Both the position numbers and the translations under genes were made by a program. Of a stretch of DNA of 64,000 bases, positions 9,646 through 49,118 are shown piece by piece. Position 1 is the stretch's first letter. Each line of letters opens with the position of its first letter. The notes below the pieces were generated by a model. That model saw only the letters and a list, made by a program, of their open reading frames with translations. It ran no database searches and was not told where the DNA came from. The stretch comes from Acidobacteriota bacterium. GTDB taxonomy: Bacteria > Acidobacteriota > UBA6911. Location of the stretch: contig OY761556.1 in NCBI GenBank assembly GCA_963664705.1, positions 1,504,001 to 1,568,000 of the forward strand, written 5' to 3'.

Positions 9646-9698
9646 TACTCGAAGCGGGCGCACCTCGCCCCATCCGGTAGCCAGCATCGTATTCACTT

Positions 9699-10589
9699 AT
9701 GAAGTCAGGCACTGTAGTCATCATCGGACGACCCAATTCCGGAAAATCCACTCTGCTGAACGCGCTCGTGGGGCAGAAAATTTCCATCGTATCCCCGAAG
9801 CCGCAGACGACGCGGCATCGCATCCTCGGGATCACAACCGAAGCGCGCGGACAGATCGTCTTCATGGACACGCCGGGAATTCACAAGCCGGCCTATGGGA
9901 TGAATCGTCGGATGCTGCACACCGTCTACGACGGGTTGAGAGATGTTGATCTTGTGCTCCTGGTCGTGGATGCCTCTATTGCCTACGGGTCGGGAGAGCA
10001 TTTTGTTCTCGAGACCGTAAAAAAAGCGGAGGCGCGGTCGCTGCTGCTGCTGAACAAAATTGACAGCATTGCCAAGAACAAGCTGCTTCCCATTATGCAG
10101 CGGTATGGAAGCTCGTATGAGTTTCTGGAGATCCTGCCGATTTCTGCAAAGACCGGTGAAAACCTCGATCTGCTGCGCGACAGGCTTTTCGAATATCTGC
10201 CGGAAGGGGAGCCGCTTTACGATTCTGAACAGTTCACAGACCGGACGGAGAGGTTTCTTGCCTCCGAGTTCATCCGCGAAAAACTGCTGGAGCGTGTTCG
10301 CGAGGAATTGCCGTATGCCTGTGCCGTACTGATTCGTAAGTTTGATGAAAGCCAGAGAGAAGAAAAAAACCTGGTGGTGATCGATGCGGACATCCTGGTC
10401 GAGAAGCGTTCGCAGCAGGGGATTGTTCTGGGTGCCGGCGCTTCGCAGCTTCGGGATCTCGGCATCTCCGCCCGCAAGGAACTGGAACAGCTGCTCGATT
10501 GCAAGGTATACCTCGGCCTCCAGGTGAGAACAGCGCGAAACTGGCGGAATGACGACGCCGTGCTGGATCAACTGGAGCTCGGGCTATGA
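9699..10589 (+). CDS. era: GTPase Era
   Basis: GRPNSGKS, PQTTR, DTPG, NKID, C-terminal KH domain. Confidence 0.96.
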   Translation: MKSGTVVIIGRPNSGKSTLLNALVGQKISIVSPKPQTTRHRILGITTEARGQIVFMDTPGIHKPAYGMNRRMLHTVYDGLRDVDLVLLVVDASIAYGSGEHFVLETVKKAEARSLLLLNKIDSIAKNKLLPIMQRYGSSYEFLEILPISAKTGENLDLLRDRLFEYLPEGEPLYDSEQFTDRTERFLASEFIREKLLERVREELPYACAVLIRKFDESQREEKNLVVIDADILVEKRSQQGIVLGAGASQLRDLGISARKELEQLLDCKVYLGLQVRTARNWRNDDAVLDQLELGL

Positions 10590-30368: not shown

Positions 30369-30411
30369 CGAAGCCGTTGGTCCGGATGGATGCATCGGAG
30401 GCTGAAAAGGA

Positions 30412-31653
30412 GTGGAGATGGAGGCAGGAAATACTGGCGCGCGCCATTTCGACGCGGAGCGTGCACGAAGCTATTGGCGTTACGCGCCGTCGGGGTTGGG
30501 CAAGCATGACACGCGCCTGCTGGCTACATTACCTGATACGGAATTGCTGCAGATCTGGAATGATGCCTTTATCGCTCGATTCCGCGGCTATCCGGAGGAA
30601 GATATTTTCGCTCAAATTGCAGCGCAGGATTTTGCCAGCCGCCGCATACTGTCCATCGGATCGGGGCTTGGATTTCATGAGGTCCTCTATGCCTCCAGAG
30701 GTGCTGAGGTCACCTGTGCCGATATTGTCGAAAGCAACCTCGCGGTAATCAACCGCATTGCTTCATTAAGGGGCGTGGCCGATCGAATCAAGACCCTGTA
30801 CTGCGCCGATAGCTCCGAGGCGGTGTACGGCGGCCCCTATGATGTCGTGTTTATTTATGGTTCGCTGATGGTGATGCCTGAATCCATGCAGCGAAACCTG
30901 TTGGCTCGCGCAAAGGCCTCTTTGACGCCGCGCGGCCAAATGATCCTGATGCTTTACACATGGCAATTTGCTCGAAGCACCTGTGGATGGGATTCCCCTG
31001 AGCACTTTGACCCTCTGGTTTTTGCCCGGGCTTCAGATCCAAGCGTGGGCGAGGAGCATTGTCCTTGGTCCGACTGGCATGATGATAGGAAGGTGCTCGA
31101 GTTGGTGGGTTCTGATATGGCGATTGCACGCCGCCAAACCTGGAACAATGCACTTTATATCTGGTACCTTTTGCAGCCTGGCCCGGCGCCGCAAAGGATC
31201 GAGCCTTTTTACAGCCTGTCCGAAATTGTAGCCCGGATGAGCCGTCGGCTTGATCTAAGCCCGAACCAATGGAACGCCTATGCGGCCAGTTCAAAAGTCC
31301 GCAACTCCGATGTCCTGGTCCACACCCAGAAGAATACCGCAAGTTACGCGTTGGGGTCGGCAACATTGAGCCGGGATGCCGATGCGGGCGGAGCAAATTG
31401 CATCTGCATGGATGTCAGCGTTCATGAAGGAGCGTTGTCCATTGGCATTCTTGATGCCGATTCCCAGAAGTTCGTTGCCTCCCAGATCATCACACAACCG
31501 GGGCGACAGACGGCGTTGATTGCATCCGATCTGCCGGAACGTTATCAGATCATTATTTCGAATTTCCGGCCGGAAGCGGCCGCCGTTTCGGTATTCACGA
31601 TTCACAAAGTCACAGCGGGTTGCCATCCCTGGCTATCCGTGCAAGGATTCTAA
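30412..31653 (+). CDS. Class I SAM methyltransferase with an extra C-terminal beta-rich domain
   Basis: ILSIGSGLG, VTCADI, YDVVF, LTPRG. Confidence 0.75.
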   Translation: MEMEAGNTGARHFDAERARSYWRYAPSGLGKHDTRLLATLPDTELLQIWNDAFIARFRGYPEEDIFAQIAAQDFASRRILSIGSGLGFHEVLYASRGAEVTCADIVESNLAVINRIASLRGVADRIKTLYCADSSEAVYGGPYDVVFIYGSLMVMPESMQRNLLARAKASLTPRGQMILMLYTWQFARSTCGWDSPEHFDPLVFARASDPSVGEEHCPWSDWHDDRKVLELVGSDMAIARRQTWNNALYIWYLLQPGPAPQRIEPFYSLSEIVARMSRRLDLSPNQWNAYAASSKVRNSDVLVHTQKNTASYALGSATLSRDADAGGANCICMDVSVHEGALSIGILDADSQKFVASQIITQPGRQTALIASDLPERYQIIISNFRPEAAAVSVFTIHKVTAGCHPWLSVQGF

Positions 31654-34336: not shown

Positions 34337-34359
34337 TGAGCGGGAGTAATTCAGCGGTA
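34337..34359 (+). repeat. Left attachment site: duplicate of the tRNA-Gly 5' end
   Basis: TGAGCGGGAGTAATTCAGCGGTA identical to 44750-44772. Confidence 0.92.
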
Positions 34360-34487
34360 TTTGTCCACCCCAGCAAGCAAAAATAATCAAAAACAATAAA
34401 ACATAGATAAATCCTGCTGTTTACGCGGGTGCGGGGATGCCTCTCTTTTTTGTTCTCTGCTTAAAATTGCGCTTTTTCATTCTTTTT

Positions 34488-34598
34488 TGTTGCGGTATTG
34501 GTGCGACGGAGTAATAGTAATTTCGGCTGGGTGATAATTAATTCAAATTTTACACCCTAATTTCTAGCAGTCGCACCAGTCGCACCAATACCGCAACA
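34488..34598. repeat. Perfect 20-bp inverted repeat (candidate integrase arm sites)
   Basis: TGTTGCGGTATTGGTGCGAC (34488-34507) and GTCGCACCAATACCGCAACA (34579-34598); a 17/19 copy at 44683-44701. Confidence 0.75.
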
Positions 34599-34602
34599 GA
34601 CT

Positions 34603-35700
34603 ATGAAAATTGCCCTACGATCCAGACCGACTACGATACGTGGCAAACGAAGCCTGTACCTTGATTTTTACGACAACGGCAGGCGCTGGTATGAAAGCCT
34701 GGGCTTATACACGATCGGCGATCGTGAGGCGGATAAACAGACAAAACGGCTTGCAGAAACTATCCTCAGCCAGCGGCGGCTTGATGCTGCATCGACTAAC
34801 AACGCGCTGCCAGCGCCATCACGATCAAAAGCCGATTTTGTGGAATTCTGCCGGAAGATCGGAGAGGAAAAGCCTTCGGAGAATACCCAGCTTGTTTGGA
34901 AAAACACCATTTCCCATTTAAAAGCCTTCGCGGGGGAACATGGAATTACGCTCGGGGCCATCAATGAAGCTTTTCTGGAAAGATTCCGCGACTACCTTTT
35001 GACGAAGGTGAGCCCGAATACAGCGCTCACCTATTTTTCCAGAATAAAGACAGCCTGCAGGAAAGCGGCGAATGAGCAAATCATCCCGCGTTATGTCGGA
35101 AGCGGTATCACGATCAGAAAACAGCAGACTAACCGCGCATACTTGACACTTGAGGAACTGCAAAAGCTCGAACGGACTCCAAGCGCAAACCAGGCGGTAA
35201 GGGATGGCTTCCTGTTCTCATGTTTTGCAGGATTGCGATATAGCGACGTAAAAGCGCTGACCTGGGATCAGGTAAGGCGAGAGGGAAATCATTCGTTCTT
35301 GTGGTTCTCACAAGAGAAAACAGGGGATTTTCAATCACTCCCGCTATCTCACCAGGCGCTTGAAATTCTGAACGCGCAGCAAAAGGCAAAACCTTCGCCG
35401 AAGATCCGGCAGGAAATTGGGAAAGACATTATTTTCAAGCTTCCTGCTCAGCAGACTGTGGACAAGGCTTTGAAGCGCTGGGCGAAGCGGGCCGGGATAG
35501 AAAAAACCGTTAGTTTTCATGTGGGCCGTCATACCTTCGCAACACTGGCGCTCACCTATGGTGCGGATCTTTACGTTGTTTCAAAGCTGCTCGGGCATCG
35601 GCGGATAGAGACAACGGAAATATATGCAAAAGTCGTGGATAAATCCAAGCGGGATGCAGTTACACTTCTGCCAAAGCTCAAACGAGCGCCGAAAAAATAA
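34603..35700 (+). CDS. Tyrosine integrase with N-terminal arm-binding region
   Basis: SLYLDFY, GLRYSD, EKTG, FHVGRHTFAT, LLGH, TEIYAK give the R-K-H-R-H-Y catalytic set. Confidence 0.95.
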   Translation: MKIALRSRPTTIRGKRSLYLDFYDNGRRWYESLGLYTIGDREADKQTKRLAETILSQRRLDAASTNNALPAPSRSKADFVEFCRKIGEEKPSENTQLVWKNTISHLKAFAGEHGITLGAINEAFLERFRDYLLTKVSPNTALTYFSRIKTACRKAANEQIIPRYVGSGITIRKQQTNRAYLTLEELQKLERTPSANQAVRDGFLFSCFAGLRYSDVKALTWDQVRREGNHSFLWFSQEKTGDFQSLPLSHQALEILNAQQKAKPSPKIRQEIGKDIIFKLPAQQTVDKALKRWAKRAGIEKTVSFHVGRHTFATLALTYGADLYVVSKLLGHRRIETTEIYAKVVDKSKRDAVTLLPKLKRAPKK

Positions 35701-35929
35701 AGCCGATAGTCTTTAGATCCTTCACAGATATATCCAAAAAATATCAAATATCCTATAAATGTGTCTGATTAAACAGAACACCTAAAAATATTTGTGTAGC
35801 GCTGACAGCCTTTATTTATAAGGGTTTAGTGGCGATATAGGGGGGTGTCTTACAAGATAGGACATAGTTTTTTTATTTGCCCATCTTTAATCTACTACTC
35901 GGCTGTTGTTGTTATTAGGAGATTCCAAA

Positions 35930-36217
35930 ATGACCAATCGTGAAATTGCCGAAAAATTAGAGAGCATAGAATCTAAGCTTTCCGATCTGACCAAGGCCTC
36001 AGAAAAACCCTTTGATTTGGCGGCGGCTGCGGACTATCTGAAGATGAGCAGAAGCCACTTATATCAATTGACCTGCCGAGGAATAATAGCGCACTACAAG
36101 CCAGGCGGAAAGCGAATCTACTTTGAAAAATGTGATTTGGATGAATACGTGCGGCGGAACCGTATCAGATCGCAATTCGAATTGGAATCTGAAGCTGCCA
36201 ACCGGATATCGGCTTAA
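35930..36217 (+). CDS. Excisionase-type helix-turn-helix protein
   Basis: AAADYLKMSRSHLYQLT...IAHYKPGGKRIYFEKCDLDEY. Confidence 0.88.
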   Translation: MTNREIAEKLESIESKLSDLTKASEKPFDLAAAADYLKMSRSHLYQLTCRGIIAHYKPGGKRIYFEKCDLDEYVRRNRIRSQFELESEAANRISA

Positions 36218-36229
36218 GAAGGCTTCCCA

Positions 36230-37087
36230 ATGAATAAGTTTTGGTGGTTTCCATTTCCTGTCGAATGGTGGCTGGTTACTACACGGTTCATGACTGCAGA
36301 ACAGGCAGGCTTTCTAATCAACCTGATGGCTGAATGTGGAAATTCGCCTGAGTGCGGAATTCCCGCCGACCCTGATACTTTGTGGCAGCGGGCGCGCGCA
36401 AAAAATCGAAAACGATTCGAATTTTTATCAAAACCAGTCCTGGAATTGTTTGTACTCCGAAATGACTTCTATTACTCACGAAAATTGCTCGAACTGAAAG
36501 AAGACCTTGACGAAAAGACAGCCCGCCGTCAAGCAGCTGGAAAAGCTGGAGCTACAGCCCGCTGGGGATCAGAAAGCGCAAAGCAACCGGATAGCAATGC
36601 TATGCGTTTGCCATCAACGCCGCATGCGGATGCCATAAAATCGCAATGCGAAACAATGGCATATACAGTTACAGATACAATTAGAGATACAGAACATAAC
36701 AGAACAGAAGATAAAAATACTTCTTGCGCTGCGGCAAGCGCCGCGCCGGAACCAGTCGAGCCGGTTATATCGCTTCCTCTGAATGATGGAACTGAATTTT
36801 CAGTTGAGCAAAAAATGCTCGATGAGTGGCTAGAACTTTATCCTGGCGTCGATGTGCGCCAGGCGCTTCGGAATATGCGCGGCTGGCTTCTCGGTAATCC
36901 ACGGAATCGAAAAACCTGGAGCGGCATATACAAATTCATCGTTAGTTGGCTCTCAAAGGATCAAAACAAAGCGCCAGCACTCAGTGGCAAGAACGGCCAC
37001 CGGAAACTAGCCAACATAGCCAGGCTGACAGAGGAAGATCTTTCGGGCGGACGGACCATGAATCCAGATGGGACTTATCGATTATGA
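36230..37087 (+). CDS. Phage replication initiator (YdaU/DUF1376-like N-terminus)
   Basis: WWFPFPVEWWLVTTRFMTAEQAG, AGKAGATARW, DTIRDTE linker, LYPGVDVRQALRNMRGWL...RKT...FIVSWL. Confidence 0.8.
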   Translation: MNKFWWFPFPVEWWLVTTRFMTAEQAGFLINLMAECGNSPECGIPADPDTLWQRARAKNRKRFEFLSKPVLELFVLRNDFYYSRKLLELKEDLDEKTARRQAAGKAGATARWGSESAKQPDSNAMRLPSTPHADAIKSQCETMAYTVTDTIRDTEHNRTEDKNTSCAAASAAPEPVEPVISLPLNDGTEFSVEQKMLDEWLELYPGVDVRQALRNMRGWLLGNPRNRKTWSGIYKFIVSWLSKDQNKAPALSGKNGHRKLANIARLTEEDLSGGRTMNPDGTYRL

Positions 37088-37228
37088 ACGGATTTCCTGC
37101 TGTGCCCAGGTCTCAAAACTACCTTTCAGGGGCAGGCGTCAACGGACTACTCCACCGTTGACAGTCGATCGGCAACCGTGGCACATGCCGATCGGCACAA
37201 CACACAAATGACGAGAAAGGAAAAACAA

Positions 37229-38047
37229 ATGGAACAGGCAAGCGTTGTTACGGATCAGCAATTACGGGCGAGCTTCCGCGCTGTAATCGGCAAATCTGAA
37301 TCTGTGATTGTCAGAGAAGACAAGAAAATCTGGCGTGCATTCCACGCGCAGCTACCCGGACCGCATAAGCCAATAACGCGCGAGCAAAGCAAACGCTGCG
37401 CTGAAGCTGAGGGGCTTGTGTACGAAGGGCTTCAGCCCTGGGGATTTTGCCTATACCGGAAAGATGCGAAAAGGCCCGAAATTCGGCTAATGGCATATGC
37501 GCGTGAAAAGGGATTGCATTATGTCGATGCGCCTGCATCGGGTTCCGCAAGCACGTCCAAAGGCGCGACGGTTGAACCTGGCCAGGCCATCGTCAAAAAC
37601 GATGTTCCGCAAGCTAAGCCTGCCCAGAAAAAAACGTTCAAGACTCCAAGACAAATTGCGGCGGATGCAGTGCAACTGGTAGAAACCGCGCGGGCAGAAG
37701 GCCGCATTCTCAGCAGTTCCGATGCTGTGAATATGGTTTTAGCCAGGCCCGGAACTGTTTGCTCAGCAATGCTCAAGGAAAGCGTGAGCCCGCACAGTGA
37801 TGAGCCCGCATCCGCCGTGGTGGATAGCCAGGTGCGCCAGGTGCAGGACTTGGTTGCGTATGAAGCGGCGCACGGTCGCAAACTCACAAACGCCGAAGCC
37901 CTGGCGATAGTTACGCAAAAAGAAAGCGCCGAAGATCCGAAGCAGCTGGCACGCAGGGCGCAGCAATATGTTGACGCCCAGGCCGCGCTGGGGCACCGAG
38001 TAACCATGGCCGAGGCAGTCTCGACTATTTTACAAACAAACCACTAA
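37229..38047 (+). CDS. Hypothetical protein with three helix-Gly-helix repeats resembling phage scaffold C-termini
   Basis: RBS AGAAAGGA; repeats ...ARAEGRILSSSDAV, ...EAAHGRKLTNAEAL, ...QAALGHRVTMAEAV. Confidence 0.65.
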   Translation: MEQASVVTDQQLRASFRAVIGKSESVIVREDKKIWRAFHAQLPGPHKPITREQSKRCAEAEGLVYEGLQPWGFCLYRKDAKRPEIRLMAYAREKGLHYVDAPASGSASTSKGATVEPGQAIVKNDVPQAKPAQKKTFKTPRQIAADAVQLVETARAEGRILSSSDAVNMVLARPGTVCSAMLKESVSPHSDEPASAVVDSQVRQVQDLVAYEAAHGRKLTNAEALAIVTQKESAEDPKQLARRAQQYVDAQAALGHRVTMAEAVSTILQTNH

Positions 38048-38057
38048 AGGAGGCCGT

Positions 38058-38486
38058 ATGAAAGAACTTGTTGAAGTTCAAGATTTCTATAATGCGATCG
38101 GGCGCGCTGTAAAGGAAAGCGCCACACGAGAAGCGCTCACCTGGCTGGAACGAGTGCGCGCGGCAATTGAATACGCAGAGCAGCGGGAACTGTCAGAATC
38201 GGAGCGCGATGATATCGCGGCTATAAGAAGGCGGCTTGCGTTTGAAGCCTTAGAAATTCAGCAGCGACTGCTTCCGGTACTGAAGCAGCTTGAGACCGCG
38301 CTGTTTGATGCAGCTGGAAAAGCGGCAATTGATACCGCGTGCACCGGTGTCACCAAGGATTTTGGCGGCGGAAACGTTAAGCGCTATCCGGCTCCATTTC
38401 AGCATCCCGCTGAATACGAAAAGGCAAATTCGGAACCAAAGCGGGAACCATTCCTGCAGCGCCTTTTTGGGAAGGGAGCCGCTTAG
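38058..38486 (+). CDS. Hypothetical alpha-helical protein
   Basis: Strong RBS AAGGAGG; operon position. Confidence 0.75.
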   Translation: MKELVEVQDFYNAIGRAVKESATREALTWLERVRAAIEYAEQRELSESERDDIAAIRRRLAFEALEIQQRLLPVLKQLETALFDAAGKAAIDTACTGVTKDFGGGNVKRYPAPFQHPAEYEKANSEPKREPFLQRLFGKGAA

Positions 38487-38678
38487 ATGTCTGAACAAAT
38501 TGCGGGCAGGCTCAATGACATTCTATTGGGCTTAACTTATCGAAGAAGTTCGGATGATTTAGGGAGTGTACAGCTTCCTGAGTGCGCGCGAAAAGCGATT
38601 GTTTCCGCACTTCTCCCAGAGATCAAAAAAATGATTGCTGAAAACTCTTCCCAGGCTGAAGAAAAGCCCAGCAAATGA
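38487..38678 (+). CDS. Small hypothetical protein
   Basis: ATG immediately follows the previous TAG. Confidence 0.55.
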   Translation: MSEQIAGRLNDILLGLTYRRSSDDLGSVQLPECARKAIVSALLPEIKKMIAENSSQAEEKPSK

Positions 38679-39201
38679 TTTGGCCAGGCGCGCCCACGGC
38701 GTTTCGCTTGACCGAGGCTTTCAAACCTTTCACTCGGTCAGGTGGTTTCCGTGGCAGAGCGCCGATACCTGCGGCAAGCTTCTGGAGCGTGGGCGGCTTG
38801 TCGCAAATAACCAGCGATAGGAAATATCATCGGGAATGCGATTCAAAACCGAAATGACAGAATCAAACCGAAACGATTACGGAAAATGCAAGAGTGCCCG
38901 GCGCTGCGATTGCCAGGCACTCTTTTTAGTTTGCGCGCTTGTCTCGTTTGATAGGACATTGGCAGCAGGTACACCCCAAGGATAGAGTGACGGCATGGTA
39001 AGAGATTTGAAAGAGTTAGGGCCAGTGCAGAAGCGCGGCGGGGGTGGTACACCCAGAGGCGTGAGGGTGTTTTTGAAGGCTGGAGGTACTGGTAGGAAAT
39101 TTTTTAGCGCGGGTACCGGCGATGGCGGGCTTTGGCTTACGTAACGGGTTTTTTAAGTCGTGTCAGTGTCAGTTTGGCTAACCCTGGGAGGGTAATCGGA
39201 A

Positions 39202-39753
39202 ATGGCAAATAGATCTGCTGGTAACCTGGTAAGAGTGACGCAGATCATGGCGGATTTTGGATGCTCTGAGCGCCAGGTTGGCCGCTTCGTTTCTGAGGGG
39301 ATGCCCAAAGCCAGGTACGGCAAATATGATCGGCTGGCGTGTCTTATGTGGTACTCGAAAAAGCTAAGGTGCGACCTTGATGCTGCTGGCGATATAACCG
39401 ACTTAGAGCGGGAACAAATCAGAGTACAGAGAGCAACCGCAGATCTAAAGGAAATGGAACTTAGCGATAGACGCGCCAGCTTGATACCGCGCTGGATACA
39501 TGAAAAGCACGTACAGATGGCTTTTGACGCTGTGCGGCGGGCTATCCTGCCAATCGCAGAGCAGATCGCGCCTGAACTTGAAGGCCTGGATAGATTGGAG
39601 ATCAAAACCAGGCTGCACAAGAAGTACCGCGATGTTTTAAGCCAGCTGGCCACGGGCGCGGATGTGGTAATGGAAGTACCTTCCGACGATGATGCGGGCA
39701 CCGAAGTTAAGCAGCCGATCGCAAAGAAGCAAAAAACAAAAGGGCGTAAGTAG
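39202..39753 (+). CDS. Terminase small subunit, lambda Nu1-like
   Basis: Winged HTH ADFGCSERQVGRFVSEGMP...GKYDRLACLMWY, coiled coil EREQIRVQRATADLKEMEL, AILPIAEQIAPEL. Confidence 0.8.
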   Translation: MANRSAGNLVRVTQIMADFGCSERQVGRFVSEGMPKARYGKYDRLACLMWYSKKLRCDLDAAGDITDLEREQIRVQRATADLKEMELSDRRASLIPRWIHEKHVQMAFDAVRRAILPIAEQIAPELEGLDRLEIKTRLHKKYRDVLSQLATGADVVMEVPSDDDAGTEVKQPIAKKQKTKGRK

Positions 39754-39780
39754 GCGCTCAAGCCTGAATGGAGGGAGTCT

Positions 39781-39975
39781 ATGCGCGCGCGATATCACAG
39801 CGTTTGCCGTACTTGTAAAAAGCGCATCCGACCAGGTGAGGAAATTCGTTTCGTGCGCGAAAATTTCACGATTCATCAAAACTGTTCGCCCAAAGTACCG
39901 CCGAAGTCTTCCGCGCTGAATCAGCAACGGACGCAGCTTGCCCTTGAACGGTTTGAGCGCGCCGGATTCCGGTAG
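39781..39975 (+). CDS. Small Zn-finger-like protein
   Basis: RBS GGAGGGAG; CRTC...IRPGEEI...HQNC. Confidence 0.65.
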   Translation: MRARYHSVCRTCKKRIRPGEEIRFVRENFTIHQNCSPKVPPKSSALNQQRTQLALERFERAGFR

Positions 39976-40001
39976 TACCAGGCAAGGAAAGGGGAAAATT
40001 G

Positions 40002-42860
40002 ATGGCTAACAATGCGGCACCTGATGTGCGGGTAAGGCTCAGCGCTGAAGGCGTGGCCGAAGTAGTCAAGGCGTTTAAACAGGTTCAAACCGAATCCGAG
40101 AAAACCAAAAAGGCTGGCGCAAGTTCGGGCGGCGCGATCGGGCAGCTTATGGGAAACCTGGGCGGCCTAAAATCGCTGATTCCCACCATAACCGTGGCCG
40201 GAATAATCACGGGCTTTGTGGCCATGGCAAAGGGCGCGCTGGATGCGGCGGCAGCCATCGGCAAAATGAATCAACGCACTGGGCTTTCAGTGCAAACCCT
40301 GAGTGTAATCGGTTATGCCGCGCAAAAAACCGGCAGTGACTTGGAAGTGGTAGAAAAGGGCTTTGTCAAATTTGATAAAGCCATGCTGCAGCTGGACAAT
40401 AACAGCAAAGCCACGCGGGATGCCCTGCAGGATTTAACGGGCAGCGCTGATTCACTGAATGGCCTTAACACGGATGAAAGGCTGAAAAAGGTAATTGATG
40501 CCCTGGCGCAAATGGAGCCCAGCTACAGGCGCACGGCACTGGCCCAGGAATTTTTTGGAAGGGGCGGCGCGCAACTGCTACCCATCATTGACAAGCTGGG
40601 CGGGGAAGGCTTCGCAAAGCTCCGCGAGGAAGCGGAAAAAGTGGGCCTGATGTATGACAAAAGTTTTATCCAGGCGGCCCGCCAGGCTAAAGCAGGCATG
40701 CGCCAGCTGCAGCTGGAAGCCAGGGGCATGGCCACACAATTTTCTGCTGGCCTTATTCCAGCCATATCTGATGCAGGCGCGGCGCTGATGGAAGCCACGG
40801 GCGGCAGTGGTATTAATGGCTTCAAAATGCTGGGAGAATTCGCGGGCAATGTTATCAAAACGATTATATCCGCACTTGTAAAAATCGGCCTTAACGCTAC
40901 CTGGATTTTTGGGCGCGTGGCCAGCCTTGGCACACGCACATTTGAGTTGATTAATAATGCCGCGCATGGCCGCATCAAGGTGGGCTGGGAAGCCTTCAAG
41001 CAGGGAATAATTAACGATTCCACGGCGCTGGATAAAACCCTGCAGGATAAATACGACAAATTCCAAATGGCCCTGGAGGGCAAAAAGCGCCTGAAGCCAG
41101 AGCCAGAGCCCGTGCAGGATGAGACGGACTACAGCTATAAGCCCGATGAAGGGAAGATAGAAAAGGCGCGCCGGGCCGCGCTGGCACTTGCGGAAGCTAA
41201 CCAGGATGCAGCCGCGCGCGTGGCGGCTGCCGAACTGAAGCAGCGCGAAGCGGAAGAAAAGGAAAAGTATGAAAAGGGCCTGGAATCCTTGAATGAATAC
41301 TACCAGGCGCGCCTGGATATGACGCGGGAGCAGGCCGCAAAAGAGGAAAAGGCCCTATACGACAAAATCCAGCAGCTGCAGAAAGCACCCCTGGGTAAGG
41401 ATGAATTGCAGGATGAGCGCCAGGCCGAAATTGTGAAAGCATCCGCAGATTACCAGGTGAAGGTGCTAGAAAATACGGCGGCGCTTAAGGCCCTGGAAGC
41501 GGAAAGGGCCAAAGAAATGGAAGACCTGCAGCAGAAGGCCCTGGAGTTTGAAAAGAAAATCCAGAAGGTGCAGGCCGATAGATACCGGGCCGCAAAGGCG
41601 GATATTGACGCCCAGGCGGCGGCCCTGGATGCGCTGCTGCAAAAGCAGGGCGTGGCACCTGCGCAGCGATCGCAGCGCGTGGAAGCCTTCCGGCAGGCTG
41701 GTTACCAGGAAATAGATTTCGGCCAGCTGCAGAATGATGGCGATAGAGCCATAAAGGAAATTGCAAACGCCAGGGCGGATATTAACCGGCAAGCCCAGGC
41801 GGGCCAGCTTACTGAAATGGAGCGAGAGCAGCAAATAGCAAATATGGAACGCGCGCGGCTGCCGATTCTGCAGGAAATTGCCAAAGCCCTATCAGGCACT
41901 GCCATAACGGATGAGCAACGCCAGGCCGCCGCTGATTTCCAGGTGCAGATTGAATCCATGGCTTTTAACCAGCAGCGCGACCTGGGCACCCAGGCCCTGC
42001 AGCAGCTGGACAGGGCGCGCCAGGATATCCAGCGCAAGGTACAGGAAGGGCAACTGTATGAATTCCAGGGTGAGGAACAAATCAGACAGCTGGAAATCCA
42101 GCGCCTGCCACTGCTGCAGCAGATAGCGGATGCAATGAAGGCGGCAGCCATCACGGATGAGCAGCGCCAGGCTGTGGCAGACTTCCAGGCGCAAATAGAC
42201 CAGCTGGCCACCAGCACCAATAAGGCGGCCCTGGAATCGGCAGCGTTTAAACGCGACGTGCAAGGCGCGCTTACATCCGATCTTACTAACTGGTTTTCAA
42301 GCGGCATAGACGGCGCTGAAAGCCTGGGGGATGCATTCAGGGGCCTGGCCGCCAGCGTGGTGCAATCGCTGCGGCAAATCGCTTCACAGATGCTGGCAAA
42401 CCTGCTTATCCAGAAAATGCTGGGCCTGGTGGGCGGAATTGCAGGCGGCGCACCTGCCGGCGGATCGGGCGGCGGATCTGCGCCCGTTTTCGTTGCCAGT
42501 GGCGGCCTGGTGCGCGGGCCTGGTACTGGCACCAGCGATAGCATAGCAGCCCGGCTTTCCGATTATGAATACGTGGTGCGCAGCGCGGTGGTAAGAAAGC
42601 CAGGCGTGCTGGAGTTTTTAAGCAGGCTTAATTCTGGCGGGCCAGTGGTGCGCACTCCCAAAAGTTACCGCTTCGCCCAGGGCGGACTGGTGGATGTAGC
42701 GGCATCTGGCAAGGGCGGGCAAGCAGGCATCACTGCAGTGCTGGGCCTAGATGAAGCACTGCTATTAAAGCGCGTGGAAGCTTCCCCAGAATTCAGCAGA
42801 GTAATTGTACGGACTGCCGCGAACAATCAAAAGGCAATGAACAATGCCCTGGGAAGGTAG
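40002..42860 (+). CDS. Phage tail tape-measure protein (952 aa)
   Basis: DVRVRLSAEG start, A/Q/E/K-rich helical body, QEFFGRGGAQLLP, C-terminal ASGGLVRGPGTGTSDSIAARLS.EYVV...FAQGGLV. Confidence 0.9.
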   Translation: MANNAAPDVRVRLSAEGVAEVVKAFKQVQTESEKTKKAGASSGGAIGQLMGNLGGLKSLIPTITVAGIITGFVAMAKGALDAAAAIGKMNQRTGLSVQTLSVIGYAAQKTGSDLEVVEKGFVKFDKAMLQLDNNSKATRDALQDLTGSADSLNGLNTDERLKKVIDALAQMEPSYRRTALAQEFFGRGGAQLLPIIDKLGGEGFAKLREEAEKVGLMYDKSFIQAARQAKAGMRQLQLEARGMATQFSAGLIPAISDAGAALMEATGGSGINGFKMLGEFAGNVIKTIISALVKIGLNATWIFGRVASLGTRTFELINNAAHGRIKVGWEAFKQGIINDSTALDKTLQDKYDKFQMALEGKKRLKPEPEPVQDETDYSYKPDEGKIEKARRAALALAEANQDAAARVAAAELKQREAEEKEKYEKGLESLNEYYQARLDMTREQAAKEEKALYDKIQQLQKAPLGKDELQDERQAEIVKASADYQVKVLENTAALKALEAERAKEMEDLQQKALEFEKKIQKVQADRYRAAKADIDAQAAALDALLQKQGVAPAQRSQRVEAFRQAGYQEIDFGQLQNDGDRAIKEIANARADINRQAQAGQLTEMEREQQIANMERARLPILQEIAKALSGTAITDEQRQAAADFQVQIESMAFNQQRDLGTQALQQLDRARQDIQRKVQEGQLYEFQGEEQIRQLEIQRLPLLQQIADAMKAAAITDEQRQAVADFQAQIDQLATSTNKAALESAAFKRDVQGALTSDLTNWFSSGIDGAESLGDAFRGLAASVVQSLRQIASQMLANLLIQKMLGLVGGIAGGAPAGGSGGGSAPVFVASGGLVRGPGTGTSDSIAARLSDYEYVVRSAVVRKPGVLEFLSRLNSGGPVVRTPKSYRFAQGGLVDVAASGKGGQAGITAVLGLDEALLLKRVEASPEFSRVIVRTAANNQKAMNNALGR

Positions 42861-42865
42861 AAAAT

Positions 42866-43141
42866 ATGATTCCGGCAACTACTCTGTTTTGGGTGATAGT
42901 GGCCGCGCTCTATGCGATTATCGGGGCATTCTGGGCAGGCGCTGCAAAGGTACACGGGGCAATACGCTGTATAGCGATCTTGAGCGGAGAAGTGAAAGAG
43001 GAATGGCCAGCGGCCCGCAATTATTACCATTGGATTAGGCCCTTGGGATTTTTCTTTCTGTGGCCGCTGTTTTGTTGGATCGCGGATTATAGAGTAGAAA
43101 AGGAACGGCGCGCCGAAGATAAGCGGCGCGCCGGGTCATAG
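42866..43141 (+). CDS. Small two-TM membrane protein
   Basis: Two hydrophobic segments and a charged tail; begins 5 bp after the TMP stop. Confidence 0.6.
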   Translation: MIPATTLFWVIVAALYAIIGAFWAGAAKVHGAIRCIAILSGEVKEEWPAARNYYHWIRPLGFFFLWPLFCWIADYRVEKERRAEDKRRAGS

Positions 43142-43186
43142 TTATTTGATTGTGCGGCCTTGGCTGCGGGCCAGGGCTGCATATTC

Positions 43187-43348
43187 CTACACTTCTTTTT
43201 CTTCGAAGCCGCACAATCGCGCGGCGCATTCCACCACGGTTTCTATATCCTTTTCCTGAAGCGCGGCCTTCATGCGGGCCAGGATGGCTTCGCGGGCCTT
43301 TCCCATTTCAATCAGTACCTCCACCAAGGGGCGTCTATCTTCGCTCAT
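43187..43348 (-). CDS. Small hypothetical protein (53 aa; not in the ORF track)
   Basis: MSEDRRPLVEVLIEMGKAREAILARMKAALQEKDIETVVECAARLCGFEEKEV; ATG abuts the upstream TAA. Confidence 0.55.
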   Translation of the reverse strand: MSEDRRPLVEVLIEMGKAREAILARMKAALQEKDIETVVECAARLCGFEEKEV

Positions 43349-43672
43349 TTAGCATCCTGTCCTGACGAAGTGCGTTATTCGGCTCACAGCAATCAATGCA
43401 TTTAATCCCTTTTCGGCCTTTGTGGACGCGGCAGGATTGAAGGCGCTCTGGAATTGTGACGGCCACAAGTGCAAGAACGATAGGGCATCCCGCTGGGCTG
43501 CGGAGATTCTAAGCAGCGCGCGCGATCGCGCGTAAGCATCTACCTTAGTTGGGCTCATTCCGGCAGCTTGTACCGTGAGGCCCGTAATATCAGTTTCGAA
43601 GTCTTCGACTCTGAAGGCTGCAGGATTGCGAAGAATCGCATTCTGAACTTTTAAAAGTAATCGGGTATTCAT
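43349..43672 (-). CDS. Hypothetical phage-type protein
   Basis: GGAGG RBS; MNTRLLLKVQNAILRNP...LWPSQF...RITHFVRTG. Confidence 0.65.
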   Translation of the reverse strand: MNTRLLLKVQNAILRNPAAFRVEDFETDITGLTVQAAGMSPTKVDAYARSRALLRISAAQRDALSFLHLWPSQFQSAFNPAASTKAEKGLNALIAVSRITHFVRTGC

Positions 43673-43950
43673 TTTTGGTATTCCTCCGGATGTACCGAAG
43701 GCACGCGGGTATATAATGCGGACGGCGCGCTGCGTGCCCAAATCACGCGGTTCGCTAGGCCCTGGTGGGTGTTAGTAGCACTCCCAGGGCCGCCAATCCC
43801 TACCATCTTGTTTGCTTGGGCCTGATTTTGTCAAGCTGGATACGTCCGATTTGTGCCCGCCATCACATTTTTCGTGCATAGCGGGAACAAGATGTTCCGA
43901 TATAATAAGCGGCATTCCTTAGCCCAATACGACCGTAAAGGAGGAAGCTT

Positions 43951-44562
43951 ATGTTCTGCCAGAAATGTGGGAAAGAGATTCCTGACCAATCGACCTTTTG
44001 CAATCATTGCGGCAATAAGAGCACGGATAATGCGGAAAAGAGCCAGAAGAAGAGCAGAAGCAGCGTTCTCCCCTGGGTACTTGTTCTTATTCTGGCAACT
44101 GCAGTGGTTGCGCTATGGCTCACAAGCGGAACAGTAAAGAAATCAGAGCCGGAAACGGCTGCTATGTCACAGGCAACTAAAGTGAGGGAACAAGTTTTTA
44201 TTCCGAAAGAAGATTCCCTTATTTCGGGAACCATAAACATTCCAGCTGGGAAGATACATGAAGCCCGAATCTTGATATCGGAAAAGATGCGCAATCCCAG
44301 GATAGTGGGCCATTTCAGCGCTTCCGGTGGATCGGGCAACGATGTTCAAGTGGTTCTCACGGATGAAGACAATTTCGTTAATTGGAAGAACGGGCACCAG
44401 GGCCGGGCTTTGTATAATACCGATAAGATTACCCAGGACTCAATTAACGCCAGAATTCCAGGGCCTGGAATTTACTATTTAGCCTTTAGTAATTCCTTTT
44501 CGACATTCACTGAAAAGCAGGTTACTGCAGACATCAAGCTGAAGTACGAAATTCTTCAATAG
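43951..44562 (+). CDS. Zinc-ribbon, single-TM protein with a beta-rich external domain
   Basis: MFCQKCG...FCNHCG, TM helix, GHFSASGGSGND, GIYYLAFSNSFS; AAGGAGG RBS. Confidence 0.8.
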   Translation: MFCQKCGKEIPDQSTFCNHCGNKSTDNAEKSQKKSRSSVLPWVLVLILATAVVALWLTSGTVKKSEPETAAMSQATKVREQVFIPKEDSLISGTINIPAGKIHEARILISEKMRNPRIVGHFSASGGSGNDVQVVLTDEDNFVNWKNGHQGRALYNTDKITQDSINARIPGPGIYYLAFSNSFSTFTEKQVTADIKLKYEILQ

Positions 44563-44752
44563 AGAGATTAAACGGGTAAGCTCTTGAAAAAAAATCCGTT
44601 CCAGGATAAATTGTTGCCCGTGATGAGCACGAAAGAGCAACGGGCAATTCGGAATGGCAACCCCATACACCAGAATTTGACTTGTTGCGAAATTGGTGCG
44701 AATAGGAAATTGCAAAAACAGTAAGTCTATCAATTTCAATAAGATAGATTGA

Positions 44753-44827
<75 letters not shown>

Positions 44828-45243
44828 GCCAAATCAAACAAATCCAATCACTTACGGCGACACGAAAAAACGAGGAGAGAACGGGTTCCCTACTGGTGCA
44901 GCCAGGGTGCAGATTCTGATCGGTCTAGACTGGGTATCCAAACTCGCAGGGACAATGGATGCCAATATATTTCTCCCATGGCCGTTCCCACTGCAGGCCA
45001 CGGATTAAACAACAGCAAACCCTATTGAGCAATGTGATCGTGAAGCATTGGAGATATTCTGCGCAGTCCACCGTGAGATGAAGAATCTGTCCCAGGCGAT
45101 ATAGCGTCGGATGAGGGCAGCGTTTTTGCTGTTGAGTGTAGCAGGGGTGCAGATTTTTGCCTGATTCGAGGATGTACTTGATGCCAGATTTTAATAGAAA
45201 GCGTGTCCCATATATGGGACGCTGACGCAGAAGTTTAGATGAA

Positions 45244-45592
45244 ATGGAGTGGATTCCTGTTCGCTTTTACGGCTCCGCGCGGGATGTAATTCATGGTTGG
45301 CCGCTGGAGGTTAAGAAGGAATTAGGGTCAGTATTGACGAGACTTCAGAAAGGCGACTCCATTGGAATGCCTGATGTTCGGCCCATGCCCGATATCAGCC
45401 CGCAGGTTTCAGAGATCAGAATACCTGACAGGAGTGGAAATTGCAGAGCATTGTATGCAATCCGAACGAAATTTGGAATCTTGCTGTTCCACGCGTTCCA
45501 AAAAAAAGAGCCGCAAAACCTCCGAAAGGGAGAAGAAGACCGCGCGAACTCGACTTGAAGCTTTTTTGAAAGAACTTGAGGAAGGGCAATGA
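45244..45592 (+). pseudogene. RelE/HigB (Gp49-like) toxin, frameshifted at an A8 run
   Basis: RPMPDISPQVSEIRI...RALY...LFHAFQKK; expected end SRKTSEREKKTARTRL is in the +1 frame after 45500-45507. Confidence 0.8.
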
Positions 45593-45891
45593 AACAAAAA
45601 AGGGAAGGCAGCAAAACCGTTACGGCGAAGACACCGAACGATATAGGACGGATACTGGGGCTTACTCCAGGGGATATTGCTCTTATGAAATACAAGACAG
45701 AGCTATCGCATCTGGCCGTCAAATCGATCCGGGAATCGGGACTCGCGCTCGGTGAAATTGTAAAAAGATCCGGGGTTGCTCGCTCGAAAGTGTCCGCGAT
45801 AAAAAACGGAGCAACTGTTTCTGTTTCCTGTGATCTGTTAGTGAAAATTATCGGTGCCACGGGCGTTGAAGTTCAACCCAATGCTGCCTAA
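45589..45891 (+). CDS. XRE-type HTH antitoxin
   Basis: ESGLALGEIVKRSGVARSKVSAIKNG...SCDLLVKI; ATGA overlap with the toxin's restored stop. Confidence 0.8.
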   Translation: MKQKREGSKTVTAKTPNDIGRILGLTPGDIALMKYKTELSHLAVKSIRESGLALGEIVKRSGVARSKVSAIKNGATVSVSCDLLVKIIGATGVEVQPNAA

Positions 45892-46029
45892 GATACCGCC
45901 AGGTCGTCCTCTCGAAAGAAAAAGGCTTTCCGATTCCGGACTGAAAACTCTGGTCCGCAATCTGGATGGATGGCTCTCAAATTCAGTGCTTGTCCAACCC
46001 AAGCCAGTTTGATTAAGGAGGAATTGAGG

Positions 46030-46647
46030 GTGAATTCCAAAAGAGTGGCGCCTGTTTATCAAATTAAAATTAGTCTGCGGGATACGGAACCCCCTGTTTG
46101 GAGGTGCATTCAGGTCCCATCGAGCTATAGTTTTTGGGATTTGCATGTCGCTATCCAGGATGCCATGGGTTGGACGGATTCCCATCTCCACATGTTTCGC
46201 GTCTCCTCCACAAATAAGCGGAAAGGGGTAAACATAGGGATTCCGGATGAGGACTTCGATGATATCCGGATCTTGGCCGGATGGGAAATCCCACTTTCCC
46301 TGCATTTCCGAGAACCTGGGGCCAAGGGAATCTATGAGTATGATTTTGGGGATAGCTGGGAGCACGACATTCTTCTTGAAGGAGTGCTCATTCCAGAGGT
46401 GGGGGCGAAATATCCGCGGTGCCTCGCGGGGGAGAATGCGTGTCCGCCTGAGGATTGCGGAGGGATTGGAGGATACTACAACCTTCTGGAAATCATTCGT
46501 GACCCGCTTCACGAAGAGTACGAAGAAAGTCTGATTTGGCTAAAGAGCATGGTTCCCGGAAATGTCCCGTTTGACTCGACGAAATTTGCTCCGGAAGAAG
46601 TTCATTTCAATAACCCGAAGAAGAGGCTCAGATCCCTTCACATCTGA
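46030..46647 (+). CDS. Plasmid pRiA4b ORF-3 family protein
   Basis: YQIKISL...PPVWR, DLHVAIQDAMGWTDSHLHMF, YEYDFGDSWEH, ACPPEDCGGIGGY. Confidence 0.9.
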   Translation: MNSKRVAPVYQIKISLRDTEPPVWRCIQVPSSYSFWDLHVAIQDAMGWTDSHLHMFRVSSTNKRKGVNIGIPDEDFDDIRILAGWEIPLSLHFREPGAKGIYEYDFGDSWEHDILLEGVLIPEVGAKYPRCLAGENACPPEDCGGIGGYYNLLEIIRDPLHEEYEESLIWLKSMVPGNVPFDSTKFAPEEVHFNNPKKRLRSLHI

Positions 46648-46835
46648 CGCGTACCGCAAGATGGTAGTTTCGCCCGGAATTTGCGAACTTGTAGCCAAAG
46701 GTTGATGGTTCATGAAGGATAGAAGTTCGGATTCCAAATATTCCATTAATATTCTATTAAGGGAGCGTGCTGCACCAGTTCGAGGAATATGCTGATTTTA
46801 CATAGCCGTGATTCAATGCCATAAACGCCTAAGTC

Positions 46836-46866
46836 CGTCGCCGGTTCGATCCCGGTCTCCCGCTCC
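46836..46866 (+). repeat. tRNA-Gly 3' fragment 1 (att site)
   Basis: CGTCGCCGGTTCGATCCCGGTCTCCCGCTCC identical to the tRNA. Confidence 0.9.
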
Positions 46867-46969
46867 CAAAAGATAAAATCACTTATAACGATACGGAAAA
46901 ATTGAGGCGGAAGCGATTTTTGCTCCTGGGTGCAGATTCTTCCCAAATTAAACCCATACTGCAAGCATC

Positions 46970-47001
46970 GGGTGACACTTCATACCGGAGACATAGGTAA
47001 C
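46970..47001. mobile_element. Solo IS481-like terminal sequence
   Basis: gggtgacacttcataccggagacataggtaac resembles IS481-family ends with repeated binding motifs; no transposase nearby. Confidence 0.4.
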
Positions 47002-47298
47002 GGTTTTGGTGCGAAACGCCCGCAGGTTCTAATCTACAGCTCGGCCGTGAGGCATGGGCGCAGGCTACATTGCCGATAACCTTTATCCGGCCCAGCGGAT
47101 GGGTAGTTTACTTCTCAATCGGGGGCCGTATCTCCAAAATCCAATCTGTATTTTAAATTTGGAAACACGGCCCAATGAACCCCATTTTAGCCAAGATAGC
47201 AGTACCTGCACATTTCCTATATGATTGTATGAGTCAATAAAGGCTTCTGAAATGAGCATCGTTGCTGATCAAACGAATTTGCGGTGAGGGAAATTAGG

Positions 47299-48573
47299 AT
47301 GTCGCATAATCCATTTAAGAACAGAAATGAAGACAGCGCATCACCGGCCAAGATTGGGAAACTGGGATGGCGATATCACTGCATCGCGAGCTGGTCTTTA
47401 CTCGCCCAGCTGTGCACCTGCGCGCTGCTCTCTGCACTGATCTGCCGCGCCCAGACGGCGCCCCCTATTGGTCCCATTCGGAGCATCGCTTCGAACGGCA
47501 GCTTTTCGATCGTTGTCAAAGCCGATGGTTCCGTAGTAGGGTGGGGACGAGATCCCGATGGACAGGCGGCTCGACAGCCGTCGCAAAAGCGCGTGATCAC
47601 CTCCCCGGAAACGATCAGCCTGCCAGGCAAAGTGCTGCAGGTGGCGCTTGGTGAAACTACGCAGTACGCGCTCCTTGAAGACGGTACGGTGATTGCGTGG
47701 GGGACAAACGATGAGGGCCAATTAGGTAATGGCCCTATGGGCGCCAGCGGAGAATTGGGCCGATACCCCAAACCATCGGTGACCCCGGTGCTCGTTACCG
47801 GCCTCACTGACATCATTCAGATTGCGGCAGGCTGGAAACACGCGGTTGCTTTGCGCAAGGATGGCACTGTATGGGCGTGGGGGAGACGTGATAACGGCGA
47901 GATCGGCGACGGCAAGCCCGAGGGGCTGAGTGCATTGCGAGCCATCGGACCTACTCGCGTTCCTGGCCTTGAAGGCATCACGCAAATTGCGGTGGCGCGA
48001 CCGCACAACCTTGCGCTCCGGGCCGATGGCCGCGTGGTGGCATGGGGCTCGAACAGGGACGGCGAACTCGGCAACGGTGGACGCCTGACGGGATGGACGC
48101 CGACGGAAGTGAGCGGCATTGATCGTGTCATCTCGATTGCTGCGGGCACTGGTGGCGGCAAAGGCCTTTCGGGTGCGATCCGAAGCGACGGCACGGTCTG
48201 GTTATGGGGAACCAATACCTCCGCGCAGATGGGCAATGGACTTGGGCCGCTGTCGCCTGACGATCCCGGCGGACGTGTGCTGCAACCTGTACCGGTGGCT
48301 GGAGTGGCCGGTGCGAAGAGCCTTACTATCGGCGATGGGCACATCGCGGTGCTGCTCCGCGATGGAACCCTCAGAATGTGGGGTCACGATGGCTGGGGCC
48401 AGATCGGAGTAGGCACATCGGGCTTCTACCACGATATTTATCTTGGCGGCCCACATTCATTCGCGGTTTGCACCGACGGGAAGCTCTGGGTCTGGGGCAA
48501 GAGCTTCATAGAGAATAGTCCCGGCCTGCTTGGGAAGAACCTTTATGCTCCAACTCAGCTCAACTTGCCCTGA
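47299..48573 (+). CDS. Exported RCC1/BLIP-II repeat beta-propeller protein
   Basis: Repeated DG(T/S)V.(A/G)WG.N..G(Q/E)(L/I)G units; hydrophobic leader. Confidence 0.85.
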   Translation: MSHNPFKNRNEDSASPAKIGKLGWRYHCIASWSLLAQLCTCALLSALICRAQTAPPIGPIRSIASNGSFSIVVKADGSVVGWGRDPDGQAARQPSQKRVITSPETISLPGKVLQVALGETTQYALLEDGTVIAWGTNDEGQLGNGPMGASGELGRYPKPSVTPVLVTGLTDIIQIAAGWKHAVALRKDGTVWAWGRRDNGEIGDGKPEGLSALRAIGPTRVPGLEGITQIAVARPHNLALRADGRVVAWGSNRDGELGNGGRLTGWTPTEVSGIDRVISIAAGTGGGKGLSGAIRSDGTVWLWGTNTSAQMGNGLGPLSPDDPGGRVLQPVPVAGVAGAKSLTIGDGHIAVLLRDGTLRMWGHDGWGQIGVGTSGFYHDIYLGGPHSFAVCTDGKLWVWGKSFIENSPGLLGKNLYAPTQLNLP

Positions 48574-48845
48574 CGCATCCGCTGCTTTCTCCCCTGTCAG
48601 GCTTGCCGTCGACGTACTCCAGTACAATGTAATCCGGGCCTATGTCGAAAAGCTGGCAAATATAAAGGTGATTTAGTGCGGCGATGCGGACAATTATCAA
48701 TTGCCGGCTTCTATGGGTCGAAGAAGGATGGTCTGTACTCCATTAAGAACATGGTTTTCGCGGACCCGCATAAACAGGGCGTATTCTGATCATCGAAAAT
48801 CAACACCATGCAACCTATGTTATGTATTTTCAATGTTGAGTCAAT

Positions 48846-48894
48846 TTCCCAAGCTGGACGTTGCCGGTTCGATCCCGGTCTCCCGCTCCAGCCA
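48846..48894 (+). repeat. tRNA-Gly 3' fragment 2 (att site starting at the anticodon loop)
   Basis: TTCCCAAGCTGGACGTTGCCGGTTCGATCCCGGTCTCCCGCTCCAGCCA, one mismatch to the tRNA and its trailer. Confidence 0.92.
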
Positions 48895-48914
48895 GATCAA
48901 ATAAATCAAATAAC

Positions 48915-49118
48915 TTAGCGGAACGAGGAAGAAGCGGGAAGGGAAGCTCTGCGAGTCCGGTTGCGTCTGGGTGGCGCTTTCTGGCTAATGAGAGAAAGAC
49001 CCGTATGGCCATCCGCAGCAGTTTGCACGATAAAATCTCTGTCTTCCAGATATGCTCCAATGCTTTCGCGAAGGGATGGATCATCATCGATAATCAGTAC
49101 GCCGGTGGATGGTTTCAT
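48915..49118 (-). pseudogene. Truncated response regulator receiver domain
   Basis: VLIIDDDPSLRESIGAYLEDRDF...AADG; similarity ends before the phospho-Asp. Confidence 0.75.

Follow-up and report, generated by a model that had tools for sequence, protein, structure and literature searches.

Why should a mobile element without genes for a tail tube, a capsid or a portal carry an intact gene for a tail tape measure? The question is raised by an island in a 64,000-nucleotide stretch of an Acidobacteriota genome (lineage UBA6911; assembly GCA_963664705.1, contig OY761556.1, positions 1,504,001 to 1,568,000 of the forward strand), hereafter the window, whose own numbering we use. The island spans 34337-44772, with 10,413 bp between two identical 23-bp cores, and 27.5% of it is filled by the gene for a tape measure protein (TMP) with 952 amino acids (aa) at 40002-42860 on the plus strand. 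An earlier note, made from the sequence, had described a stand-alone TMP taking over a quarter of a satellite-like element, and both points hold. We suggest that the island is probably a phage satellite that would add its own TMP to tails made by a helper siphophage, and that this helper belongs to the family of the phage L279 and the prophage L246.

The open reading frame (ORF) at 40002-42860 is confirmed as an intact TMP. The ORF listing gives 952 codons without a stop, preceded by a purine-rich ribosome site, AAGGAAAGGGGAAAA, as the note had claimed. The Pfam scan returned no match for it. Tape-measure families make up 11 of its 15 PHROG matches (the best named one at E 7.6e-25), and a family profile built from 42 relatives matched, in the PDB, the TMP of the Pseudomonas siphophage JBD30 (8rk3, E 1.8e-27) and also 8zdo (E 1.9e-22). 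A tube gene lies at most 4 kb upstream in 29 of the 33 TMP-relative loci at a score of at least 400 bits, and upstream in 76 of 86 at 200 bits or more, counting loci with at least 2.5 kb of upstream DNA and including near-duplicates. The note had allowed that the protein might turn out to be some other coiled coil; in complete phages, its orthologues are part of tube-chaperone-TMP modules. The protein has a single hydrophobic stretch (about residues 55-86) and an internal duplication of some 82 aa (about residues 571-734), which appears in the DNA as a repeat with 246-nt spacing. A partial match to phrog_971 inside it is the sole lysis-type match in the island in the PHROG scan. The tail of JBD30 is reported to measure 180 nm and to count 45 rings (PMC11445458), and its TMP chain has 1158 aa (8rk3). 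Scaled to these values, the island TMP would give a tail of about 148 nm, close to the 140 nm of the earlier estimate. For the 968-aa TMP of L279 the prediction is about 150 nm, a difference of about 2.5 nm that falls short of a single 4-nm ring, and hence a change in length is not likely to be the selected trait; for an L246-like helper it is about 139 nm. Since the predicted tail length matches that of the proposed helper, length can be separated as a selected trait from entry or defence evasion.

The tail genes that normally flank a TMP are missing. Hidden Markov models (HMMs) of the tube, of the tail assembly chaperone (TAC) and of TAC-T of the L279/L246 family found nothing in the six frames of the island (E<=0.5), and the PHROG scan of all 13 island ORFs gave no match to capsid, portal, large terminase (TerL), Dit, tip or baseplate-hub genes. 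A TAC of unrelated fold could escape these models, which do detect both TAC and TAC-T in the sister island E267 described below. Four small proteins (orf64, orf63, orf60 and orf142) were considered as hidden chaperones and rejected, with no HMM support for any of them. What the island does have is the equipment of a satellite: attachment (att) repeats, a tyrosine integrase, a helix-turn-helix (HTH)/excisionase gene, a replication gene and a small terminase (TerS).

Where would such an element find tails? Four of its parts point to one family of lambda-like siphophages of about 42 kb. The closest TMP of known context is that of L279, in a 41.8-kb lambda-like siphophage record (G1226) that also has portal, protease/scaffold, capsid, tube, TAC and TAC-T genes; the two TMPs are 58% identical and have the internal duplication of about 82 aa in common. 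The full-length TerS (183 aa, 39202-39753, plus strand; phrog_57, E 1.9e-19) is 49% identical to that of L279 and 48% to that of L246, a prophage in a genome of the same genus with a GpA-type TerL, a portal, a tube and a TMP 41% identical over its full length. The third part is a conserved non-coding motif at 39085-39121 (plus strand), 80 nt before terS, predicted to be a cos-like packaging site. It was defined on three sequences (the window island, the sister island L003 and L246) and was then found independently in the islands E265, E267 and L086 and in G1226, 55 nt upstream of terS. It was not found in the record G1227, and its single match in the 6.9-Mb host genome is the one inside the island. 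The fourth part is a 272-aa protein (37229-38047, plus strand) whose best match is the scaffold half of the L279 protease/scaffold (27% over 179 aa, E 1.4e-9). Its protease domain is gone, and it ends in three copies of the scaffold C-terminal helical motif, one strong and two weak (HMM domains with i-E 3e-12, 0.098 and 0.61). We predict that it is a capsid-binding or size-redirecting factor.

The history of the TMP suggests that it was acquired from phages more than once. On a 62-row FastTree tree, which left out fragments, duplicates and rows P0045-P0056, five satellite TMPs need five changes. The TMP phylogeny that the earlier note had proposed for finding helpers places the window TMP as sister to that of L279 with support 100/99 (IQ-TREE, 20 selected rows, LG+G4 without a mixture model). 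Grouping it with L003 and the two nearest rows of L003 is rejected (p-AU 6.3e-5 in the approximately unbiased test, for a group named after the FastTree tree was seen). The island genes around the TMP are common to L003 and the window island, and it is therefore simplest to suppose that the TMP was replaced, or separately captured, from phages. Satellite TMPs are thus polyphyletic, captured repeatedly rather than left over. The window TMP is also a mosaic: residues 401-570 best match L279 (75%) and residues 741-952 best match P0081 (75%), while residues 81-260 are 40% identical to L279 and 66% to P0003. This last region has a mean family identity of 43%, against 49-65% for the other regions. 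Both termini are conserved with phage TMPs, and the last 38 residues, which in JBD30 form the baseplate-anchoring part, are nearly those of L279.

The earlier note had reasoned that homologous elements usually lacking the TMP, or carrying it disrupted, would speak against a role for it. Six other tube-less islands with the same TMP family, all reached via the TMP, keep the frame open: L003 (896 aa), E265 (891), E267 (894), L086 (870), L100 (987) and L288, where it is open to the contig end. L003 has 10,208 bp between 47-bp repeats at a tRNA-Glu; its integrase and replication genes differ from those of the window island, its gene order is motif, terS, TMP, orf91 and orf107 (the last two being small genes also found after the window TMP), and a protease/scaffold gene is present as well. 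Its terS (9626-9997) encodes 123 aa, lacking about 35 central residues of the window TerS, and may be a derivative like the Rpp of other satellites. E265 and E267 lie in one genome, on contig G617:C15. E265 (also L265/L276; 90005-108476, 18.4 kb, tRNA-Arg) carries replication, TMP, protease and terS genes, orf107 and a tip/baseplate-hub-type gene (phrog_1101; JBD30 chain 8rk3_o, E 6.5e-49). E267 (also L267/L277; 365333-382797, 17.4 kb, tRNA-Gln) carries TAC and TAC-T, identified by HMM, with TMP, terS, terL and a tip/hub-like gene assigned by ORF likeness; the two hub-type genes encode about 843 aa each. No capsid, portal or tube gene was found in E265 or E267. L086 is a 10.2-kb contig (10,179 bp) with overlapping ends, apparently circular, with a protease-capsid fusion, a serine integrase, a packaging-like motif and a TMP nested among phage TMPs; no terminase gene was found in it. 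L288, cut by a contig end, and L100, whose limits were not found, have integrase, replication and TMP genes without tube or TAC. Among the 301 genomes of the order of L003, orf107 occurs in two, both times inside TMP islands. The protease of E265, a 283-aa ORF of E267 and a 147-aa ORF of L288 have a different repeated C-terminal motif in common. One further element, L275 (G101:C18, about 441000-452500), reads by its ORFs as an integrase-AlpA-primase island with protease/capsid, a neck protein, HNH, a 99-aa chaperone-like ORF and a 699-aa TMP of another family, and no tube.

How might such an island work? Infection by a phage of the L279/L246 family would induce its excision and replication. 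Its TerS would then steer the TerL of the helper to the motif before terS, and the scaffold-derived protein would compete for helper capsid protein, giving small heads. The island TMP, folded by helper chaperones and with a C-terminal anchor almost that of the helper, would nucleate tube assembly on the helper baseplate. Chaperones, tube, baseplate, capsid, portal and large terminase would all be borrowed. The likely gain would lie in control of DNA delivery, or in escape from a defence directed at the TMP, and not in an altered tail length. The direct basis of this proposal is the gene content, the att repeats, the intact frames, the sequence kinship, the mosaicism and the recurrent capture of TMPs. 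Of the three roles that the earlier note had offered, chimeric tails fit best, given the conserved termini and the sister islands with TAC or hub genes, even though the role itself is an inference. Evasion of a TMP-directed defence through the swapped residues 81-260 is plausible. Pure poisoning of helper tails fits less well, since an inhibitor in the form of a complete and compatible TMP is expensive. One might speculate further that the TMP is a swappable key, each lineage re-capturing a helper-compatible TMP, recombining its N-terminal region and adding a small inhibitor (orf107 or the membrane protein orf91) that blocks the TMP of the helper in assembly or entry and spares its own. We regard this elaboration as rather unlikely. 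If it were true, one gene unaided by any chaperone would suffice for the capture of a siphophage tail, and E265 and E267 would be steps toward a private tail tip and host range.

Several observations weigh against the insertion of a satellite TMP into helper tails. The proposal gives no account of how the island TMP would be favoured over that of the helper, the island having no chaperone of its own. The tube and TAC models of the L279/L246 family found nothing in the 6.9-Mb host genome, and for this reason the helper would have to come from outside. The lambda-like prophage A resident in this genome (G000:C1, about 5.13-5.17 Mb) has a TerS unrelated to that of the island (E 0.39). As a general marker of terminases the pre-terS motif is weak: in IMG/VR it is followed by a GpA-type terL in 5 of the 64 viral matches with enough downstream DNA, against 1 of 60 in the control. 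No attP or attB joint appeared in the assembled contigs of three runs spanning attL, in which depth is even by construction. The sister islands were all reached via the TMP, and islands without one are under-counted. Compared with L279, the TMP has a dN of 0.36 and a dS of about 1.9, showing constraint on the pair, but this cannot be assigned to the satellite branch because the comparison covers the phage and the satellite lineage together and dS is close to saturated. Finally, frameshifts or truncations affect three members of the P0081 cluster, P0004, P0080 and P0083, whose identity is 98.6-100%. P0004 may lie with an orf107 homologue, and these broken copies may represent a satellite copy in decay or read errors.

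Resident elements were also considered as helpers and set aside. The TMP of prophage A is 26% identical over 175 aa, with different termini, and neither the HK97-like prophage C nor the tailless island B gave a tblastn match to the TMP or TerS.

Some of these points would suit a decayed prophage or a recent passenger, i.e. an L279-like remnant or a TMP picked up by chance and of no use. The terS, the scaffold-like gene and the TMP come from one phage family and stand in phage order, the contigs spanning attL give no sign of activity, and broken TMPs exist in the P0081 cluster. The open frame says little at short distances: in simulations of neutral drift (150 each), an unconstrained gene of this size remained stop-free in 15% of cases at 2% divergence and in 0.7% at 5%, so that an open frame by itself rules out neutral drift only above a few percent. 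Yet both att cores, the arm-like repeats and the integrase are intact, the island holds no fragments of portal, capsid or tube genes, and its integrase and replication genes have no match in the G1226 record. The protease domain is lost while the scaffold end motif is repeated in tandem, and the same architecture is seen again at other tRNAs, next to other integrases and with TMPs that were captured independently. We consider this explanation improbable.

We judge equally improbable that the TMP serves interference only, titrating helper chaperones or baseplates, or giving dead tails, and so lowering helper output while island particles use the helper tails that remain. Without an island chaperone the TMP must indeed compete for the TAC of the helper, residues 81-260 diverge from the family, and tail assembly is a reported target of defence (Rta; PMC12987554). 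But the island itself needs tails, and a short fragment would do as a poison. Both termini are conserved, and the 66% identity of residues 81-260 to another natural TMP indicates that they were swapped and not degraded. The TAC and hub genes of the sister islands fit building, not blocking. The least probable alternative is that the TMP is interchangeable with that of the helper and only boosts the output of tails while the late genes of the helper are suppressed by the island, with no selective incorporation: a length within 16 aa of that of L279, a middle region 75% identical and the lack of a dedicated chaperone would agree with it, but the island has no other limiting tail gene, the swap of one region and the hub genes of the sister islands suggest specificity, and loss of tmp in PLEs reportedly cut transfer by 96-99.9%, though PLEs have their own TAC (PMC12987554).

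Tape measures in satellites are not new as such; the strategy was described in other bacteria a short time ago. The PLEs of Vibrio cholerae (PLE1/4/11), whose helper is ICP1, are described as making chimeric tails from their own TMP, TAC and BhuB (PMC12987554). Like them, the island is an integrated satellite without tube or capsid genes and with its own TMP, and the likeness extends to the sister islands, where E267 has a TAC and both E265 and E267 a baseplate-hub-type gene. In the published account, the TMP of PLEs is 20% identical to that of the helper, a lytic myophage. The window island in contrast has the TMP alone, with neither the TAC nor the baseplate hub of the PLE module, 58% identical to a siphophage TMP and of a family repeatedly re-captured. 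The EPIPs of Mycolicibacterium aichiense, of about 11 kb, combine terS, TMP and a scaffolding gene and have a siphophage helper (PMC12822802). The window island resembles them in size, in terS and TMP, in a scaffold-type gene and in its relation to siphophages. EPIPs are reported to have a serine integrase, a head-tail adaptor, a stopper, an annotated major capsid protein and tails longer than those of the helper, whereas the island has a tyrosine integrase at the 5' end of a tRNA and none of the EPIP head genes. The report on PLEs further mentions tmp genes in additional putative satellites, among them phage-inducible chromosomal islands that form capsids (cf-PICIs; PMC12987554). The island shares with these a tmp gene and no tube, but cf-PICIs encode capsid, portal and terminase, and the island has no capsid, portal or TerL.

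In its other functions the island resembles the cos-type PICIs of Gram-negative bacteria, which use Rpp (PMC6092414, PMC6739421). It has the integrase, an HTH regulator and a replication gene; its TerS-family gene and predicted packaging site are related to a lambda-like helper. Of the PICI core genes, integrase, HTH_17 and a primosomal-like replication gene are present; Pfam and PHROG gave no match in the island to AlpA, a repressor or a primase. PICIs are given as about 12-15 kb and as defined by the absence of structural genes (PMC6092414). The island measures 10.4 kb, its sisters 10.2-18.4 kb, and it carries a TMP and a scaffold-derived gene. Its TerS differs from Rpp in being full length and 49% identical to a phage TerS. 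The scaffold-derived protein recalls CpmB of SaPI1, a satellite protein described as bearing the C-terminal motif of the helper scaffold and competing for capsid protein, with small heads as the outcome (PMC5644958). It too carries a phage scaffold C-terminal motif, but it has 272 aa, comes from a protease/scaffold fusion and has the motif up to three times; we draw an analogy and claim no homology. The island thus stands outside the PLEs and the EPIPs and, by the lack of structural genes that defines them, outside the PICIs, but in its working it would come closest to a cos-type PICI to which a PLE-like step at the tail is added.

The literature on satellites and tape measures yielded the primary reports on PLEs and EPIPs, a conference report and a paper on the SaPI capsid, and for Acidobacteria unrelated ecology papers only, though supplements may list more. 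What is new here is the chaperone-free TMP, the helper family suggested by four parts, the repeated capture and mosaicism, and the graded series of sister islands. The PLE report (PMC12987554) leaves open for what purpose a satellite has a TMP and by what means this TMP prevails over that of the helper. The window island is a minimal case, a TMP with no chaperone, and its relatives form a natural series: TMP only, TMP with chaperones, TMP with hub, TMP with capsid, and several TMP captures. They would also extend tail piracy to the Acidobacteriota, where all knowledge of host and helper comes from assemblies.

The remaining features of the island follow in map order. The left core, attL (34337-34359, plus strand), repeats the tRNA-Gly(CCC) 5' end and is identical to 44750-44772. 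A repeat search found a perfect 20-bp inverted pair (34488-34507 and 34579-34598) with a third copy at 44682-44701, which are probably integrase arm sites. The integrase (365 aa, 34603-35700, plus strand; phrog_1) has arm-binding, SAM-like and catalytic domains in Pfam (PF00589, PF13102, PF17293). It is followed on the same strand by the HTH_17 excisionase or regulator (95 aa, 35930-36217; Pfam and PHROG) and the primosomal-like replication protein (285 aa, 36230-37087; phrog_3992, E 1.3e-8), whose C-terminal part is 57% identical over 70 aa to that of E267. After the scaffold-derived gene come orf142 (142 aa, 38058-38486, plus strand), helical and without family in the Pfam, PHROG and PADLOC scans, with a low-confidence model of two long helices (pLDDT 62), and two short ORFs of 63 and 60 aa without family (38487-38857, plus strand). 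Between terS and the TMP lies orf64 (39781-39975, plus strand; phrog_1581), a Cys/His protein of 64 aa with no TAC match and with a 42% homologue at the region of prophage A.

Directly after the TMP, orf91 (91 aa, 42866-43141, plus strand) encodes a membrane protein with a hydrophobic N-terminus; it has a 38% homologue at the equivalent position of L003, and its database search gave four matches, itself among them. The helical protein orf107 (107 aa, 43349-43672, minus strand), also present in L003 and E265, is a distant member of the unnamed phage family phrog_889. Its predicted fold (pLDDT 80) matched in BFVD uncharacterised phage proteins only, and the PDB fold search gave no match. It is not exclusive to satellites by sequence, with 399 representatives at E<=1e-3. 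Among the 51 genomes of the order of the host, orf107 is found in the host alone, and one further genome has a TMP relative of full length, and hence the island is sporadic. Scans of viral contigs with the TMP, orf107 or orf91 as single queries found no relatives, the PADLOC scan of eight small island ORFs gave no defence-gene match, and the promoter and terminator scan gave signal at chance level. A 203-aa accessory protein with zinc-ribbon, membrane and GOLD-like parts by Pfam (43951-44562, plus strand) comes last, before the attR core and the intact tRNA-Gly(CCC) at 44753-44827 (together 44750-44827, plus strand).

The host genome holds two prophages with tails, one lambda-like (G000:C1, about 5131981-5171099; TMP of 1156 aa) and one HK97-like (about 2540000-2598000; TMP of 1443 aa), the latter region with several long ORFs of 1600-1700 aa that look YD/RHS-like. 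A cf-PICI-like island of about 10 kb at a tRNA-Val (G000:C1, about 1034971-1044593) has, by ORF reading and one Pfam TerL match, integrase, primase-like genes, HNH, TerL, capsid, protease and portal, and no tail genes. To the left of the ABC transporter genes that flank the window island, the sequence of 28884-31653 reads as a B12-binding radical-SAM-like gene beside a methyltransferase-like gene. Past the tRNA-Gly, two further islets of about 2 kb, neither with an integrase, occupy 44783-48917 and are each ended by a copy of the tRNA 3' part (46823-46894 and 48846-48917); both ends of the tRNA-Gly, 5' and 3', are therefore in use. In one of these islets a pRiA4b ORF3-like gene accompanies a Gp49/HTH_37 toxin-antitoxin-like pair; the other encodes an RCC1-repeat protein.

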